31,894 bases of DNA, taken from contig CAYUFH010000003.1 of the NCBI GenBank assembly GCA_964444015.1, forward strand, positions 9,180-41,073. Direction: 5' to 3'. Source of the DNA: an uncultured Gammaproteobacteria bacterium. GTDB lineage: Bacteria; Cyanobacteriota; Vampirovibrionia; LMEP-6097. Of this stretch, positions 20,108 to 28,187 are shown piece after piece; position 1 is the first letter of the stretch; each line of letters begins with the position of its first letter. A program made the translations under genes and the position numbers. The notes under the pieces are model-generated. The model did not search any database. It saw only the letters and a program-made list of their open reading frames with translations, and was not told where the DNA came from.

Positions 20108-21007
20108 TTATGGCATTGGACTGCCGTAGTTGTAGTAGTAGTTAGCCCTATCAGCAAACTGAGGATGATTCTCGCCGAAGGCTTGCGGCATTGGAGACAT
20201 GCGTATCATATTAGGGTCTGGACTAATAGGATTGCTAGGCTCTTGATTGTTATACATTTGTACTGGAAACTCGACGTACTCGGGGATTGCGCTATTGTTA
20301 GCATCATATAATTCTCGCTGCTTTTTAGCCTCGCGCATCTCTAAAGCCAGACCACCAGCATGTGGAAGCACACCAAGAGCGTAAGCTGTTGGCACGCCTA
20401 CTGAATCAAAAGTACCAGGATAGTTAAATGGAGTAACGGTATCAATAGGGAAAAAGCTCAAGAATTGAAATAAAGTATCTTTTCTAGATGGCGCGACTTT
20501 CTCGCGATTATATCCCCAGCCTGGAGCTAAGGCTTGATAATTACGCTTAGAACTTGGTGGTGCATAACTACGGTAAGGATCTCTAAGACCACCGACTGTA
20601 TAACCAGTTTGGTGCCAATCTGGGTTTGGTGTAACTTCTTCAGCGGGAGGTCTCTTGATAGCAGTCTGTTCTATGTATGGATAAGCATAAGCAGCTGGGC
20701 TTACTCCAAGGTCACGCAAGAAGCTGCCATCTCGGTGGTACATTCCGGTGTAACCGCTTGGGTGCCTTAATATAACTCTATCAGCATCTGTTTGATCTAT
20801 ATACCTATGCCATTGTGGTGAAAACTCAACTTCTACTACATTAACTTCACCCATGCTTTGGCGAATTGCTGGGCTTAATTGGTTATAACCAACACCAACG
20901 ACTAGTAGAGTAATTTTTTTATCACGGTCATCTTCAGCGAAGACAGGCGTCATTAATAGCAACATTAATGCAAGTATAATTTTGGCCTTAGTGATGAGCT
21001 GCTGCAC
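20108..21007 (-). CDS. Hypothetical secreted protein coupled to fliR
   Basis: Sec-type signal KAKIILALMLLLMTPVFA|EDD; Tyr/Pro-rich body; GTG start overlaps the fliR TAG by 1 nt. Confidence 0.75.
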   Translation of the reverse strand: MQQLITKAKIILALMLLLMTPVFAEDDRDKKITLLVVGVGYNQLSPAIRQSMGEVNVVEVEFSPQWHRYIDQTDADRVILRHPSGYTGMYHRDGSFLRDLGVSPAAYAYPYIEQTAIKRPPAEEVTPNPDWHQTGYTVGGLRDPYRSYAPPSSKRNYQALAPGWGYNREKVAPSRKDTLFQFLSFFPIDTVTPFNYPGTFDSVGVPTAYALGVLPHAGGLALEMREAKKQRELYDANNSAIPEYVEFPVQMYNNQEPSNPISPDPNMIRMSPMPQAFGENHPQFADRANYYYNYGSPMP

Positions 21008-21789
21008 TAATTGAATCCTAATAATCTTCCGCTATTACCGAAAAAATTAAAGAGTCCCATAAAGAATAACGGCATTATTAGTAAAAACACTATAACTCCG
21101 ATACTTGGTTTTATGGTGTAGCTGATCTGGAAGGCGTTAATCTGCGGAGAAGCCCGTGAAATCAAGCCTAAAATGATGTCACCGACCATAATTGTAAGTA
21201 TAATCGGGCTGACTATGATGAAACCCATGGAGATGATATCACCTACTAGGTGCACTATCCTTAAAGCATCCACGCTAAAACTTGGAGCATAAATATTTAC
21301 TGACGAGAAGCTTTTATAGAGAGATTCTATAAGACGCTCTGGTCCATGTACGAAAAAAAACACCACTATGGCAAGCGAAGACATAAACTTACCCATAATT
21401 GTGGTTTGTGCACCTGAGTGAGGATCAAAAGTTTGTGCTGAAGAAAAACCCATCGAAGAGTCCATCATCTCTCCACCACTCACTACTGTTTCAAACATTA
21501 ACTTAGCAACAAAACCAATTAATAAACCCAAAGATACATTAACGAGAACCGCCCACGGTAAATAATAACCAGCACTAGGCGGAGAAGGAAGATCAATACT
21601 GTTAAGTATGATCATGGTAAGAAAAATACTAAGCCCAATTCGCGTTAATAAACTAATTCCCTTGTGACCAAATATTGGAGCCATATGTAAGAAAGCTAAG
21701 ATTCTTACAAGTACCAATGATGAAGCGATAACATATTCGTTAGCCGAGCTTAACGCCGCTTGCCTAAAAAATCCTGCAAGTAGTTCCAT
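21007..21789 (-). CDS. fliR: Type III export gate protein FliR/SctT
   Basis: VRILAFLHMAPIFG, GEMMDSSMGFS and GLISRASPQINAF motifs; hydrophobic, 260 aa. Confidence 0.9.
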   Translation of the reverse strand: MELLAGFFRQAALSSANEYVIASSLVLVRILAFLHMAPIFGHKGISLLTRIGLSIFLTMIILNSIDLPSPPSAGYYLPWAVLVNVSLGLLIGFVAKLMFETVVSGGEMMDSSMGFSSAQTFDPHSGAQTTIMGKFMSSLAIVVFFFVHGPERLIESLYKSFSSVNIYAPSFSVDALRIVHLVGDIISMGFIIVSPIILTIMVGDIILGLISRASPQINAFQISYTIKPSIGVIVFLLIMPLFFMGLFNFFGNSGRLLGFN

Positions 21790-21791
21790 AA

Positions 21792-22793
21792 CTACTCAGC
21801 CGTAGCCGCTCCTTCTTCGGTTTTCACTTCATCTATGGAAGATTTAATTCGAGCAAGTGCAGCGCGTGCTCGACTACGACTTGCTTCAAGCTCTTGATTG
21901 CGAGGCGCAGCATTAACAACTATAGGTGCTGGTTCTTCAATAGGACTTGGTTCTATTACTCTAACTGGTTTGGCTGCTGCTCTTGGCGTAGAAATTGGAG
22001 CTGGTCTGCTAGCAGCTGGAGCACTAGCTCTAGTTACTGGTGCTGTAGCTGGGCGAGTCGCTATAGGTCTAGTGGCTACTGGTGCAGTTGTGGTGGCTGG
22101 ACGACTTACTGGAGCTGTAGTGGTCGGACGAGTCGTGGCAGTAGGACGTGGCTGCGTAGCAGCTACTGGAGCTCTAGTCGTGGCAGCTGGGCGAGCAGGC
22201 TCAGGTTTCTCTTCTTCAGTGGTCGCAGCCTCATCACCATTCTCTGGTGCTAGCTGTTCTATGACAGCTTCCCTAAGTCCGCTAGGCGGTCTAAGTAAAT
22301 AGTTAATTACGGGTAATTTATCTGTAACTGGTTCTGGAGGTACTTCTACAACTTCAGCATCCTCAGGTATATTTTCTTCGCCGCCCATAGCTTTAGTTTC
22401 AGCACCGCCGCCAGCAGCAGGAGCTGTCTCAGCTAATTCTTCAGGCGAGAACAAAGGATGATCAGTTTCATCATCAGTCTTCAGTGGTTGTTTTAATAAT
22501 TTTTTAGGTGGTAGTGGATGCGAGCTAAGACCTGGTACTAAATTAAAAGCACGACTAATGGTCTGCGAAGTATATTGCTTCAAGTACTGGAACATATAGA
22601 AACCAAAAACTATTAAAGCTAAGAAGACGCCAAGTATCTTCACTGCTGAACCTAAGGTTTGTTCTTGAACTTGAGTAGCCGCTTGAATAATACCTATAAC
22701 TAAACCCAGAGCCGCCGCTAGTAAAACCAGCGGACCCGAGATAAAGAGTACGGTAAAAATACCGTCTCTAATTGCTTGAGGCATCCAATCCAT
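21792..22793 (-). CDS. fliQ: Type III export gate protein FliQ/SctS with a ~245-aa C-terminal low-complexity extension
   Basis: First ~90 aa: GPLVLLAAALGLVIGIIQAATQVQEQTL. Then acidic and Pro/Ala/Thr/Arg-rich segments; 333 aa in total. Confidence 0.88.
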   Translation of the reverse strand: MDWMPQAIRDGIFTVLFISGPLVLLAAALGLVIGIIQAATQVQEQTLGSAVKILGVFLALIVFGFYMFQYLKQYTSQTISRAFNLVPGLSSHPLPPKKLLKQPLKTDDETDHPLFSPEELAETAPAAGGGAETKAMGGEENIPEDAEVVEVPPEPVTDKLPVINYLLRPPSGLREAVIEQLAPENGDEAATTEEEKPEPARPAATTRAPVAATQPRPTATTRPTTTAPVSRPATTTAPVATRPIATRPATAPVTRASAPAASRPAPISTPRAAAKPVRVIEPSPIEEPAPIVVNAAPRNQELEASRSRARAALARIKSSIDEVKTEEGAATAE

Positions 22794-22795
22794 TT

Positions 22796-23449
22796 TTAAT
22801 TAAAGCTCTGAGCAAGACCTTTGACTATCAAATCCCAACCATCTATCGCAACGAAGATCATAATCTTAAACGGCAGCGATACAATAGTTGGCGAGAGCAT
22901 TATCATACCCAGCGCTAAGAGTATATTAGCAACGATTAGGTCAATCACCAAGAAGGGAATGAAAACTAAAAATCCAATCTGGAAAGCTTTGCGCATTTCA
23001 CCTAATAAATAGGCAGCTGATAGCTCTCTAGTCTTGACATCAACCGGTTTTTTAGGTAGTTCCTCACGGCTGAGTTTATAAAAGAACTTAAGATCTTTAC
23101 TATCAACGTTGCGTAGCATATGTTGCTTTAAAGGTTCGTAAGTACGGGACAGTGCTTCAGGTAAAGCGATTTGATTATTAGCCAGCGGTACTATTGCAGT
23201 TTTATTAATAATATCGACTTCTGGTCCCAGGACATAAGTAGTAAGCACCAAAGCTAAACCTATTAAAACCATGTTGGGTGGCGAGTTCTGAGTACCTAGT
23301 GCTTGCCTGATTAATGACATCACCATGATGATACGTAAGAAAGGTGTCATCGACACTACGATGATAGGTATAAAACTTAAAAGGAAAAGCAGGCCTACAA
23401 TCTGTAAGCTCGGTTCTAAATCAGGAAGTAGTCTACTAAGATCTTCCAT
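22796..23449 (-). CDS. fliP: Type III export gate protein FliP/SctR
   Basis: MTPFLRII, RQALGTQNSPPN, FQIGFLVFIPFLVIDL and LGMIMLSP...SLPFK...DGW motifs; 217 aa, no signal peptide. Confidence 0.93.
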   Translation of the reverse strand: MEDLSRLLPDLEPSLQIVGLLFLLSFIPIIVVSMTPFLRIIMVMSLIRQALGTQNSPPNMVLIGLALVLTTYVLGPEVDIINKTAIVPLANNQIALPEALSRTYEPLKQHMLRNVDSKDLKFFYKLSREELPKKPVDVKTRELSAAYLLGEMRKAFQIGFLVFIPFLVIDLIVANILLALGMIMLSPTIVSLPFKIMIFVAIDGWDLIVKGLAQSFN

Positions 23450-23483
23450 AGCTAGCGTTTTATATAGACGCTAATAGCTTTAT

Positions 23484-24347
23484 TCACAGTTTTGGCTTAG
23501 ATCTTGCTGGTTTCAAGATAAGAAACTTGGATCTTAGCTCATCGTGAAGCTTAGACATAGCATATTCTCTGGCTGTTTTATTTCCACGATGTATTTTATA
23601 GATATCTATGTAATTTGTTGCTTTTTTAAGAAACTGGTTAATTAACTTTTTACTACCTAGTCTAGTGACTTCTAGTTTTACAAATTTTGGTTTCTCATCT
23701 TGAAAAAAGAATTTTTTCAATAATGCGATAAGAAATCTTGGTACTTTCACTTGTTCTTTTAGGCTTTTATGCAAATGATCAACTAAAGTATCATCCCGAA
23801 AGTATTTTACTAAGTGATCTAAGAAAAACCATCCTGTGCTTCCTGTAGCGGTCACATCACACATGGCGATATCATCTTTATCTTCTTTGACTTTTTTACC
23901 TGTTTTGATTGCTTTTACCTTCTTAGGCATTAAAGGTATTGCTAGTAGTTTTGGTGCTGAGGAGCAATGACTATAGCGTCCTGATATAAGCTTAATTGCT
24001 TTTCTAAATCTTTCTTGAACACGAGTAACTGCAAGAGTTCTTCTTGTTGGGTTGCTTGTAAGTTCTTTCTCAACTTTGCTTAATTCTAAATATGTAGCAT
24101 TGACTACTTTTGTCCAGTTTCGTTTCTGACCCACATCAAATTTACTAACAGCTTCAACTTGTTCTTCTGTTAGACAATTCTTAACGCCTAGTAGTTTACA
24201 AATATTCCTTAAGAGAGCTGTGTGGGAGCCTGCAAGTTCATTTCTAAAACTGACAATTCTTCGTCCGGAAACATCTGCAGCGACGGCTAGACCAAAACTA
24301 TGTGGTTGCCCTGTACGGGCCTGTGAAACTAACGCACTGTTATACAC
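23484..24347 (-). CDS. Hypothetical Lys/Arg-rich protein upstream of fliP
   Basis: 287-aa ORF ending 34 nt before fliP. Extended -10 TG-T-TAAGAT (24363-24355) is 7 nt before the GTG. Confidence 0.7.
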   Translation of the reverse strand: MYNSALVSQARTGQPHSFGLAVAADVSGRRIVSFRNELAGSHTALLRNICKLLGVKNCLTEEQVEAVSKFDVGQKRNWTKVVNATYLELSKVEKELTSNPTRRTLAVTRVQERFRKAIKLISGRYSHCSSAPKLLAIPLMPKKVKAIKTGKKVKEDKDDIAMCDVTATGSTGWFFLDHLVKYFRDDTLVDHLHKSLKEQVKVPRFLIALLKKFFFQDEKPKFVKLEVTRLGSKKLINQFLKKATNYIDIYKIHRGNKTAREYAMSKLHDELRSKFLILKPARSKPKL

Positions 24348-24367
24348 AGAACTTATCTTAACACATC

Positions 24368-25942
24368 TTATCTAAGCTTGATACTTATCACTGAAGGTCT
24401 CGGATACTTATGCTCTTTGGATCGCGGCCAGGTTCCACTAGGGTGCTGCACCGATAAGAACAGTGTCCGTCCATCATCACTAAACCATGGTCCAGTAAGT
24501 TCAGCACCTATTGGTGCTGATGCGAAGCGCCTAGGAATTCCAGCTTGTTCACCACTTAGTGCAATAACATAAAGACCATTATTACCATAGAGCTGACGTT
24601 GATGCGGCAGCATAAATTCTGGAGACGCGTCTGTGGTCACCCAAAGATTACCAAGCCCATCGAAAGCTAAATTATCCGGACAAGCAAAACCTGAATCAAT
24701 AGAGCCAACTACAAAATTATTATAAGTAAATTTTAGAGCCTCATGGTTATTACCATCTTCTAGCAAGCGAACTATCGAACCAAAAGTATTAGCGCGACTA
24801 AGATTTTTAGTGAGCGAGACATAGATGGAACCATCATGAGGACTGACTTCTAGATCTTCTGGTCTATCTAGCGCACTAGCATCTATGAGTTTAGCTGATT
24901 CGCGAGTATGAATTAACATCTCGGAATCATTGCGATAGCGGCGCGCGATACGTTTATCTTCGCGACTGATGGGCAGCCATTCGCCGACACCTTGCTCGCT
25001 AGGATCTAAGCTTGGGCTAATAGTTTCTCCATTAGAGGCATCATAGAATCTAGCTACATAAAGCTGACCTTCAGAGAGTAAGTTGCTAAAGCCATCAACT
25101 ATATCGCTGTACTCGTGCAGCTTAATTTTGCTATGTGGTTTAGTGAAGCTACGTGCAGAAACGAATTTATAAATATGTTCATTCTCTTTATCATCACCCA
25201 TATAAATCACAACCTTATCGTTGCGTGAGATGGTGATAGCGGCATTCTCGTGAGCAAAACGCCCTAATAGACTATGTTTGCGTGGGGTGAATTTAGGATT
25301 GTAAGGGTTAATCTCAGTTACCCAGCCATAGTGTTTGCGTTTAAAATTCTTCCATTTATACTTTTCGTTGAAGTCATGAAAATTCTCTTCGCAAGTGAGT
25401 ACAGTACCCCATGGCGTGCGTCCACCGCTACAATTCGCTAGCGTGCCTTTAACTTCTTCACGGAAGCGAAGAGGACCTGTGAATTCAACAGGACTATTAG
25501 CATCGATGCGGCGATTATAACTAGTTTCGTCGCTATGATCATAAATCCACTCGCCATCAGCATTACGTTTAATTTTAATAATAGATCCACCAACACTACG
25601 GCGCTGTTCTTCTATATCTGGAATATATTTAGGATCTACTGATTCGTGGTTCACCCATAATAAGGCCTCATCAGATTTTTCTAAAGGGAAAAAACAAGTG
25701 AAGTCGTTATTGAACCCAAATTTTTTATCGGTGCCAATGCTATCTTGCCAGCTGCGTACTATACGATAACTAAATCCACGCGGCAAAACCACCTCGTCTC
25801 TTAAGCTTGCAGCTATGGGCTCAAAACCTAGTTCTGGATTAGGTTTTATTAAAGGCGGCAAAGGCTTTAGATTACAAGAACTTAAACCAAGACCCATAGA
25901 GCCGATTCCTAATAATTTAAGAAAACGTCTGCGATCAAGCAT
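24368..25942 (-). CDS. phoX: PhoX-family alkaline phosphatase with Tat signal and lipobox
   Basis: RRRFLK twin-arginine motif; LSSC lipobox; NCSGGRTPWGTVLTCEEN, GRFAHE, RPED, PDN and QHP motifs. Confidence 0.9.
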   Translation of the reverse strand: MLDRRRFLKLLGIGSMGLGLSSCNLKPLPPLIKPNPELGFEPIAASLRDEVVLPRGFSYRIVRSWQDSIGTDKKFGFNNDFTCFFPLEKSDEALLWVNHESVDPKYIPDIEEQRRSVGGSIIKIKRNADGEWIYDHSDETSYNRRIDANSPVEFTGPLRFREEVKGTLANCSGGRTPWGTVLTCEENFHDFNEKYKWKNFKRKHYGWVTEINPYNPKFTPRKHSLLGRFAHENAAITISRNDKVVIYMGDDKENEHIYKFVSARSFTKPHSKIKLHEYSDIVDGFSNLLSEGQLYVARFYDASNGETISPSLDPSEQGVGEWLPISREDKRIARRYRNDSEMLIHTRESAKLIDASALDRPEDLEVSPHDGSIYVSLTKNLSRANTFGSIVRLLEDGNNHEALKFTYNNFVVGSIDSGFACPDNLAFDGLGNLWVTTDASPEFMLPHQRQLYGNNGLYVIALSGEQAGIPRRFASAPIGAELTGPWFSDDGRTLFLSVQHPSGTWPRSKEHKYPRPSVISIKLR

Positions 25943-28091
25943 ATAGTTTTTTGTAGGTCCAATAGTTGGCTAGAACCTTTTTGACGTAATTGCGAGTTTC
26001 GCTGTATGGAATATCTTCGATAAATAAATCCATATCAGTAGCACCTTTATTCATCCATTGAGCTACGGCTGTTGGTCCAGCATTGTATGAAGCGACGGCG
26101 CAAACCATATTGTTAGAAAATCTCTCGAACACATCCTCCATATATCTAATACCAAGCTTGATATTAATTGCCGGGTCTTTAAGTGCATTAATATCTGGTG
26201 AACTGATACTTAATCTGCGTGCTAGATCACGCGCTGTAAACGGCATCACTTGCATTAAACCTACTGCTCCAGCTTTACTGTTGATGTCAGGTCTATAGTG
26301 AGACTCTTGTTTGATCAAAGCTTGTGCCAGCATTGGATCTACTAAGCGACGCTTACCAGCTTCATCAGCGATTAAATCTGCGTATGGTAGTGGGTAAGCG
26401 AAGAATAACCTCTTATCGCTAACATCGATATTACCCTTCATATGTTCTACCGCCATATGTCCGGTTTTGATAGCTGAATAAGTGTCGCCAGCCTGAGCAT
26501 ATAACCACATCTTGAGATTCTCATCGAGCTTGTATTGATTAGCTTCACCGTCAGAATCTAATAAAGCACTATATTGTTCAATCGCAATTAATTCAGCAAC
26601 TTCATTACCGTAACGTTCTTGCAACTCATCTTCAGTAGCTATATCTGGCCAACGCCAATTAGGGTAAGAGCTAAACTCGTTAACTCCCGGTAGTAGATAC
26701 CATTTATTCTTCTTAGCAAGAACTTGCTCAGCCCTGAAACGATAGTAATCAAGCGGGTGTTCTTCAATGATATTTTGCAAAGTAGCATTCGCCATATTGT
26801 TATCACCCTGCTGCTGCCAGAGTTTAGCTGCCCAAAACGCGACGAAAGCATGAGATTTAGACTCTGGATATCTTTCCCAATGTTGCTTAGCTATAGCCAG
26901 AGCATTATGATTAGCTCCGCGCTTATACTCTTTCCAGAACACAGTCGCCATGCTCTCTGGAGCGTAGAAACTATCAGGATAGCCCTCGTAAATAGCTTGA
27001 TAATCCTCTTTGATTTTGGAGAGTTCAGCGATATGCCACAAGACTTTATCGCGATGTTTCTGCATGCGTGGGGCAAGAGTACGCAGCTGATTTATGCTTG
27101 CTGTTTCTGAACTGAGACCTAAGAGATACTCAATAGCATTCTTAGCAACTTCATCATTAGCCTCGCCTGGTATACGTCTATAAAGTAGCGCTAGTGCTTC
27201 TTGTCTTTTGCCAGCCTTAGCAAGAGCGGTAGCGTGTTCTAGTAATGGTGAGCCATTGGCGTTGAAATAACTTAGGGCTTTACTGTAATCACCATGACTG
27301 TAATAACTTAGCCCCAGTTCTTTATGCAAGTCTGCAAATTGTTTACGCTCGGCATCAGTCATGCCCGCAACTTCATCGGCGACTAAACTAGCTAAATTTC
27401 CCATAGGACTTTTAACTAAGTAGTTACGCAGATAAGCTATCTTGCATTCTCTATCATCAGCACCACAAAGATTCGCTAAATAGTAATTAGAACCAATAGC
27501 AAAATCAGACTCGGGAGCACTAGCCTGCACTGCCATAAACTTGTCGCGCGCCTTTTCGACTGCGTTTTGGCGTAAATATGATTTAGCCAGTTCGTAGCTA
27601 TAACGCGGGTCCTTAGAGAATTTCTGCGCTAGATTTTCGTAGATTTCTGTCGCCAGGCGTTCAAGCCCGATGCGCTCTGCCATCTTAGCGAGCTTGTAAC
27701 TAGCGAAACGCGGCAAATAATCTCTATCTATAAGGTAGTAATAATGGAAGGCTAAAGCTTCTTCACCCATTTTTTCATAGATGGCAGCGAGCAAGACATT
27801 ACGTCTATTCTCAAGTTTAGTTGGCAAGCCACTAAAACTATCTAATTGACTTGTACCTAATTTAGCGTCAGTTTTAGCTAGAGTATAAGCTGTGCGAATT
27901 TTGGCTTCAAGTGCTTTAAATTCAGCATCACTTACTCTTGGTCCACTGCTAGAAATATCAGTATAAAAATATACAGCGAAGGCAACCGCGAGAGCAGCAA
28001 CTGCCGCGTACACTATGCGTAATTTTGAAGATTTGAAATTGCCTGATTTTAGTCCTGGTAATTTGATATCAGGGATTCGTAGTTTCGCCAC
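25935..28091 (-). CDS. slt: Slt-type lytic transglycosylase with N-terminal TM anchor and TPR-like helices (track start 28130; GTG at 28091 preferred)
   Basis: IKQESHY, AGAVGLMQVMP, SYNAGP and IPYSETRNYVKKV motifs. TATAAT (28104-28099) is 7 nt before GTG 28091; the track start lies inside a repeat. Confidence 0.88.
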   Translation of the reverse strand: MAKLRIPDIKLPGLKSGNFKSSKLRIVYAAVAALAVAFAVYFYTDISSSGPRVSDAEFKALEAKIRTAYTLAKTDAKLGTSQLDSFSGLPTKLENRRNVLLAAIYEKMGEEALAFHYYYLIDRDYLPRFASYKLAKMAERIGLERLATEIYENLAQKFSKDPRYSYELAKSYLRQNAVEKARDKFMAVQASAPESDFAIGSNYYLANLCGADDRECKIAYLRNYLVKSPMGNLASLVADEVAGMTDAERKQFADLHKELGLSYYSHGDYSKALSYFNANGSPLLEHATALAKAGKRQEALALLYRRIPGEANDEVAKNAIEYLLGLSSETASINQLRTLAPRMQKHRDKVLWHIAELSKIKEDYQAIYEGYPDSFYAPESMATVFWKEYKRGANHNALAIAKQHWERYPESKSHAFVAFWAAKLWQQQGDNNMANATLQNIIEEHPLDYYRFRAEQVLAKKNKWYLLPGVNEFSSYPNWRWPDIATEDELQERYGNEVAELIAIEQYSALLDSDGEANQYKLDENLKMWLYAQAGDTYSAIKTGHMAVEHMKGNIDVSDKRLFFAYPLPYADLIADEAGKRRLVDPMLAQALIKQESHYRPDINSKAGAVGLMQVMPFTARDLARRLSISSPDINALKDPAINIKLGIRYMEDVFERFSNNMVCAVASYNAGPTAVAQWMNKGATDMDLFIEDIPYSETRNYVKKVLANYWTYKKLYA

Positions 28092-28116
28092 AATCAATAT
28101 TATATATGTAGTACTT

Positions 28117-28187
28117 GTCATCCTGAGCACGAAGTGCGAAGGATCACCGTGCGCTATCTAGAGATCCTTCGCTGTGCTCAGGATGAC
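28117..28187. repeat. Palindromic REP-like element, family B
   Basis: GTCATCCTGAGCAC/GTGCTCAGGATGAC (14 bp) plus GCGAAGGATC/GATCCTTCGC (10 bp), with a 17-nt loop. Confidence 0.85.

Follow-up and report, generated by a model that had tools for sequence, protein, structure and literature searches.

FliQ of the flagellum and SctS of the injectisome are the smallest and among the most constrained parts of every such machine. Canonical members consist of a two-helix hairpin with a conserved loop, their gene lies between fliP and fliR and, by homology, about four copies take part in each FliP5Q4R1 gate. Kuhlen et al. 2020 (PMC7064499) placed four FliQ in each gate, with FlhB bound and the conserved FliQ loop at the cytoplasm-facing base; in the same account the FlhB membrane domain starts and ends in the cytoplasm, the hairpins of FliQ and FlhB point in opposite directions, and FliR ends in the periplasm. 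Among Melainabacteria, Di Rienzi 2013 described MEL.A1 as devoid of filament, cap, junction and L/P rings and interpreted this as genome reduction. Earlier Melainabacteria genome papers pooled as "flagellar genes" what we describe below as two sets, and searches of the open-access literature turned up neither an extended FliQ nor a pair of paralogous sets in this group.

The window (i.e. the whole stretch of 31,894 nucleotides analysed here) belongs to contig C3 of a metagenome-assembled genome of 1.49 Mb (144 contigs, 83% complete). It carries a fliQ gene (21792..22793, minus strand) that shares the hairpin, the loop and the gene position of canonical FliQ/SctS. Canonical matches in the same search measured 83-94 aa and ended just after helix 2, whereas this gene is a single ORF of 333 aa (335-aa open frame), from an ATG start to a TAG stop. 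The FliQ core therefore does run without a stop into 245 further residues, as an earlier note on this DNA had claimed. Upstream, fliP of what is hereafter called the second system (22796..23449, minus strand, 217 aa) ends 2 nt before the fliQ ATG (TAA-AA-ATG); downstream, fliR of the same system (21007..21789, minus strand, 260 aa) starts at ATG 21789, again 2 nt past the long stop (TAG-TT-ATG), confirming the earlier view that the extended gene remains translationally coupled to fliR.

The Pfam Bac_export_3 model (PF01313) matched aa 7-75 with an E-value of 1.1e-19 and 70.6 bits, against a gathering cut-off of 25. The protein scored below the NCBIfam equivalog cut-offs both for fliQ (TIGR01402, 63.8 vs 88.9 bits) and for SctS (TIGR01403, 53.8 vs 76.5 bits). 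It is a FliQ at the domain level, outside both the flagellar and the injectisome equivalogs.

Five segments were delimited along the protein. The core hairpin (aa 1-85; 22539..22793, minus strand) was defined by the PF01313 match, the AlphaFold2 helices (aa 6-39 and 47-85, predicted from a 60-sequence alignment) and the invariant alignment columns. The loop between the two helices, Q37-A-A-T-Q-x-Q-E-Q-T46, is invariant; residues identical in all 60 sequences were Q37, A38, A39, T40, Q41, Q43, E44, Q45, T46, A50 and K52. A motif of conserved columns follows (aa 82-101; 22491..22550, minus strand), and a short basic stretch lies directly after the core, ahead of an acidic disordered block (aa 106-197; 22203..22478, minus strand) recognised by composition, short motifs and AlphaFold2, with 24 D+E and a net charge of -19. 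Next comes a basic spacer rich in Pro, Ala and Thr (aa 198-297; 21903..22202, minus strand), distinguished by composition and dN/dS, which holds 22 Pro, 25 Ala, 17 Thr and 4 acidic residues for a net charge of +8. The protein closes with a predicted terminal helix or tip (aa 300-327; 21813..21896, minus strand; pLDDT 83-88), whose hydrophobic residues L302, A309, L313, I316, I320 and V323 show heptad-like spacing.

AlphaFold2 left aa 86-299 unstructured (pLDDT about 43-63), in agreement with the disorder suggested earlier. Three other features announced in the earlier note held only in part. The charge segmentation is real, with an acidic block followed by a basic one, but the Pro/Ala/Thr block, described as free of acidic residues, is only nearly so. 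The xTRP-like repeats exist in degenerate form at the protein level, and not as a tandem repeat in the DNA, where Tandem Repeats Finder detected no array over the tail. The terminal amphipathic helix is predicted as a helix, but its helical hydrophobic moment did not single it out, and we therefore term it a predicted helix with heptad-like spacing rather than a strongly amphipathic one. Within the tail, no transmembrane segment was detected (maximum KD19 0.58) and no Pfam domain matched, including TonB_C (PF03544 / PF13103) and TolA. Two antisense ORFs lie inside the tail on the plus strand (21894-22253, 119 aa, and 21898-22302, 134 aa); both are rich in Gly, Ser, Trp and Arg and are almost certainly mirror images of the Pro/Ala/Thr codons rather than genes.

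The tail was confirmed as a real coding sequence under constraint. A search for FliQ proteins longer than 200 aa, proposed in the earlier note and run as a word-indexed protein search, retrieved 110 homologues of 220-344 aa, whose named sources were Melainabacteria or Cyanobacteriota MAGs. HMMER was also run exhaustively against 1.84 billion cluster representatives and yielded 796 matches; among the best 87 of these, 84 exceeded 110 aa (median 237 aa), and the next 63 had a median of 89 aa. Compared with the same-genus orthologue, dN/dS was 0.05 in the core, 0.18 in the acidic block, 0.37 in the Pro/Ala/Thr block and 0.10 in the tip helix, values that are only approximate as dS was saturated. 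All indels relative to this orthologue were in frame, and the Pro/Ala/Thr block, the least constrained part of the protein and one whose length varies between relatives, retained 38% identity between congeners. A C-terminal helix motif (hydrophobic-x-polar-[LI]-[KRQ]) occurred within the last 35 residues of 104 of the 110 long FliQs, vs 42 of 388 linker control windows (11%); together with the dN/dS contrast between tip and spacer, this bears out the expectation of a conserved tip on a variable linker.

Assembly data pointed the same way. A Logan contig from freshwater metagenome run X3, which is probably the source sample, spans 21700-22900 with 0 differences although built by a different assembler, and an identical 248-nt piece of the tail was present in a run of a different study. 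The assembly data thus gave no sign of a lost stop near codon 90, and a FliQ of about 90 aa beside a separate tail ORF, the other arrangement that would have spoken against the earlier note, was not found in relatives at this locus. A co-occurring relative has 442 nt in place of 559 nt of the tail, making it 39 codons shorter and leaving it in frame. This shorter-tailed relative (differing over window 22091-22651; runs X1 and X3) is the more abundant of the two in that freshwater sample, with a contig depth of about 41-43 vs about 8.

The genome encodes a second FliQ, of canonical size, on contig C21 (92-aa ORF, 94-aa open frame), beside a FliP with a signal peptide. This flagellar FliP measures 251 aa (L001:1737-2492, minus strand), whereas its second-system counterpart, of 217 aa in this genome and 213-220 aa in other families, lacks a signal peptide and opens directly on the first membrane helix. 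FlhA, FlhB, FliF-like and FliR genes were each found twice in the genome, FliG_C and FlgI once. Partner genes of the set to which the window belongs were located on several contigs, i.e. fliE, fliF, a 123-aa ORF in the fliG position and fliH on C17, fliJ, a fliK-like gene and an flgE/F/G-like gene on C61, a 423-aa FliN-like protein on C16, FlhA on C110 and FlhB on C84. Parts of this second set scored better on flagellar models than on Sct models. The ORF in the fliG position lies between fliF2 and fliH2 (C17:15038-15409, minus strand, equivalent to L018:2039-2410); its counterpart in genome G151 has 336 aa (L008:10130-11140, minus strand). Both gave a weak MgtE_N-like match and no FliG_C match, and may represent a cut-down FliG lacking the torque helix.

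A scaffold gap (run of N, C17:13630-13884) lies just downstream of fliH2, at the low-coordinate end, which makes the downstream context of this cluster uncertain. The end of contig C10 yielded a third FliP match, which was considered as a possible third system and rejected, as this contig end repeats the slt-phoX-orf-fliP segment of the window almost letter for letter. Proteins of C10:22492-27719 (L021) are near-identical to those of window 23449-28130, with an ORF of 258 vs 287 aa between phoX and fliP, and this copy probably stems from another strain that was binned with this MAG.

The distribution of the two FliQ types was assessed in 200 genomes of the same class, Vampirovibrionia (Melainabacteria), whose families are designated f1, f2 and so on. 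The short and the long FliQ occurred together in five families plus the single sampled f2 genome; a third FliQ match was seen in f2 and in a few others. FliQ was present in f6 (49/49), f7 (8/9) and f8 (11/12), as a single copy in nearly all cases, and wherever it was read there it was extended (162 aa in f6, 259-386 in f7, 186-287 in f8). These three families amount to 70 genomes keeping the second set only. The FliQ of the second system bears a C-terminal extension in every lineage where it was read.

Flagellin_N was found in every genome of the two-FliQ families (28/28, 1/1, 2/2, 19/19, 25/25 and 5/5) and FliG_C in nearly all (26/28, 1/1, 2/2, 19/19, 24/25 and 5/5, mostly as one copy). In f6, f7 and f8, many genomes of which are 99% complete, Flagellin_N was absent (0/49, 0/9 and 0/12) and FliG_C gave a single match, below the cut-off, in f7 (0/49, 1/9 and 0/12). 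FlgI occurred once in each of three two-system genomes and in neither of two single-system genomes. In the families that have this FliQ type alone, the long FliQ was therefore encountered without the marks of a system that builds a flagellum (Flagellin_N 0/70, FliG_C above cut-off 0/70, FlgI 0/2), absence here meaning no match to the Pfam models at E<=0.001, which highly divergent versions could escape.

The complete, flagellin-less genome G151 shows the second set in three groups: (i) fliE, fliF, the 336-aa ORF, fliH and flhA; (ii) a FliN-like gene followed by fliO, fliP, fliQ (162 aa) and fliR; (iii) a FliK-like gene, an FlgE/F/G-like gene, a sigma factor and flhB. When its proteins were compared by tblastn with the second vs the first set of the present genome, identities were 48 vs 36% for FlhA, 43 vs 37% for FlhB, 46 vs 25% for FliQ and 34 vs 26% for FliR. 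An FlhB tree (unrooted, no outgroup) separated two clades with 99/98 support and placed the single-system genomes G151 and G019 in the clade of the window type, with f1 and f7 as sisters. In the FlhA tree, the copy from the end of contig C71 had an extremely long branch owing to poor extraction of its ORF, and we relied on the FlhB tree and the remaining FlhA rows. The identities and the FlhB tree indicate that the long FliQ is part of an old paralogous system and not of the flagellum. One or more secretins were found per genome, none of them near these loci; they may be PilQ.

The reading that we favour, and consider fairly probable, is that the long FliQ is a subunit of another export apparatus, paralogous to that of the flagellum, of flagellar origin and present class-wide, whose tails serve as periplasmic tethers. 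In the absence of flagellin, of the FliG C-terminal torque domain and of the P ring, the machine would probably be non-rotating and filament-less. From the canonical core and the solved FliPQR-FlhB structures, we infer that the tail starts in the periplasm, so that about four tails would project from each gate. The conserved 20-residue segment after helix 2 would probably pack on the gate or the MS ring; beyond it, the charge-segmented, proline-rich disordered spacer, TonB-like and bearing short conserved motifs, would lead to a lineage-specific tip, here a helix of 28 residues, whose docking partner could lie in the periplasm or the outer envelope. The tails might thereby hold gate and docking partner together, or bring the partner to the gate. 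In a rotating rotor, gate tethers with their far ends fixed to a static envelope component would be wound up, an incompatibility that fits the restriction of the tails to a system without the FliG torque domain; this is an argument rather than a test.

We regard as unlikely that the tail instead stays within the basal body and stops short of the outer envelope, serving in assembly as an adaptor or filler that bridges the gate and the second-system MS ring, for example by keeping the gate in the ring or by replacing FliO. Within the extension, conservation peaks at aa 82-101, the sole part common to all families: A82 and F83 are invariant, P87, L89 and P95 reach at least 90% conservation, and the segment as a whole, nearly core-like in conservation, occurs in all long FliQs (more weakly in f5, f6, f10 and f7) and is absent from the canonical FliQ of about 89 aa. 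In published structures the FliQ C-terminus starts inside the ring. Furthermore, fliO lies upstream of fliP in f6, f10 and f7 and not in the family of the window, and tblastn with FliO of G151 and G017 detected none in this genome. All this would suit a role close to the gate. Yet four tails of 245 residues would represent about 100 kDa by rough estimate, a large mass for the tight gap that separates gate from ring; extended spacers typically show such a proline-rich, charge-segmented composition; outside the core, constraint is strongest at the far tip; and FliO is cytoplasmic and bitopic, which the tail is not.

Comparison of the tails between families bears on another possibility, namely a tolerated low-complexity expansion, i.e. 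a generic disordered "bristle" binding nothing specific. Tails range from about 30 to about 300 residues and cannot be aligned between families, the Pro/Ala/Thr block is poorly conserved even between congeners, and no Pfam domain was recognised, all of which would be expected of such a bristle. Nevertheless, the extension is kept in every second-system lineage and never occurs in the flagellar paralogue, and dN/dS stays between 0.10 and 0.37 along the tail. The acidic block carries internal short motifs, i.e. EP[DE] near aa 145, LxxPxxQ near aa 160-167 and xK+Q near aa 176-180, and the tails of other families, unrelated in sequence, each have their own conserved tip: ...[ST]W[LI][NDQ] in f8, ...NKILG[RW] in f6 and, at the very C-terminus, ...DxLxPP...W[WFY] in the f7-like tails. 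In the sister group P0143-P0199 (L013:6646-7431, minus strand), proteins of 227-376 aa with tails rich in Ser, Asn and Pro end almost without exception in W-W, W-F or W-Y after D-x-L-x-P-P, which may constitute a C-terminal aromatic recognition signal. A single design thus recurs across families, with a conserved stub, a variable proline-rich spacer and a conserved tip, and we judge a non-specific bristle to be improbable.

A cytoplasmic tail contacting FlhA, FlhB-C or the FliH/I/J ATPase complex would agree with the positive-inside rule, which, taken alone, favours the cytoplasm in view of K72, R81, K97, K98 and K101 after helix 2; the core is canonical, however, and the solved FliPQR-FlhB complexes put its loop at the cytoplasmic base and both termini in the periplasm, so that this topology appears very improbable. 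An assembly or sequencing artefact, in which a lost stop or frameshift near codon 90 fused a FliQ of the canonical length of about 89 aa to downstream sequence in a metagenome-assembled genome of 144 contigs, can be practically dismissed in view of the 110 long homologues from many assemblies, the 84 extended proteins among the best 87 cluster representatives, the identical Logan assembly over 21700-22900, the in-frame indels and dN/dS below 1 against the orthologue, and the same gene order in five further loci.

Returning to the tethered second apparatus, candidate partners were sought among the neighbouring genes. Four loci share the order rlmN, SLT (TPR), fliP, fliQ, fliR, an ORF of about 290 aa, rnhA, HAD and tsaD. 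The SLT gene encodes a TPR/superhelical lytic transglycosylase with an N-terminal membrane anchor (25935..28130, minus strand), upstream of fliP; it directly precedes fliP in L017, L023 and L024, and in the window and its closest locus, L015, phoX and an ORF of 285-287 aa lie between the two. It could be a dedicated peptidoglycan-lytic enzyme of the second system or a syntenic housekeeping Slt. Downstream of fliR, whose stop it overlaps with its start, ORF299 (20108..21007, minus strand) encodes a Sec-signal protein of an unnamed family and is a candidate operon partner. Its invariant motifs are GWGYN, P-x-D-x-V-x-P-x-NYPG, LG-x-x-PH-x-GG and NP...DPN. Only an alpha/beta domain (aa 30-101) was predicted with confidence; Foldseek gave nothing at E<=0.001 in the PDB (best 0.029), and the ESM Atlas provided no usable match.

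The N-domain of ORF299 was found in f1 (27/28), f2 (1/1), f7 (8/9) and f8 (10/12) and in none of f3, f5, f6, f10 and f11, i.e. it is confined to families with long FliQ tails. In f7 and f8 the gene carrying this domain is not adjacent to fliQ and, as f1 and f7 are sisters, the co-occurrence of tail and domain may reflect a single evolutionary event. Modelling the tail (aa 86-333) in complex with mature ORF299 gave a score of 0.00 with low confidence in both chains, and is uninformative on binding.

At the least, the extended FliQ provides a simple sequence marker separating two paralogous systems in Melainabacteria, which changes how "partial flagellar gene sets" are to be understood in non-motile members, those of the gut included: gut lineages thought to keep only flagellar leftovers are among those with the second, flagellin-less set. 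A conserved periplasmic tail present four times per gate would be a new link between the T3SS core and the cell envelope. More tentatively, we put forward as a possibility that the long-tailed FliQ marks an unrecognised, class-wide and non-rotating type III machine, derived from the flagellum independently of injectisomes, whose four tails link the inner-membrane gate to an outer component. If this were true, the flagellar "decay" of non-motile gut Gastranaerophilales would in fact be a working secretion or envelope-spanning apparatus.

With respect to known systems, the long FliQ resembles TonB and TolA in its membrane-anchored N-terminus, its proline-rich, acidic-then-basic spacer and its C-terminal docking element; the spacer of E. 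coli TonB is made of Glu-Pro then Lys-Pro. It differs in having no TonB_C or TolA domain, in being anchored by a T3SS gate subunit and not by an ExbBD or TolQR partner, and in ending in a single helix or short aromatic motif rather than a folded domain, so that the resemblance concerns a possible way of working and not membership. Another parallel is offered by secretin S-domains docking on pilotins (e.g. PulD-PulS, MxiD-MxiM), in which a disordered linker bears a short C-terminal helix thought to fold on its envelope partner. The FliQ tail is likewise a disordered linker ending in a short helix, but its carrier is an inner-membrane gate subunit and not an outer-membrane secretin.

As regards whole machines, the second system shares with injectisomes a T3SS core without flagellin or motor and a FliP without signal peptide, as in SctR. 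It differs from them in keeping FliE, FliK-like, FlgE/F/G-like, FliH, FliJ and FliO components, and no dedicated secretin was seen beside its genes. A basal-body and export set kept without flagellin is also the condition of the filament-less basal bodies of Buchnera and of the gene subsets of gut Melainabacteria. These subsets were read as flagellum decay, whereas the set described here is a paralogous system distinct from the flagellum; other families possess it together with a complete flagellum, and it has a hallmark of its own, the extended FliQ.
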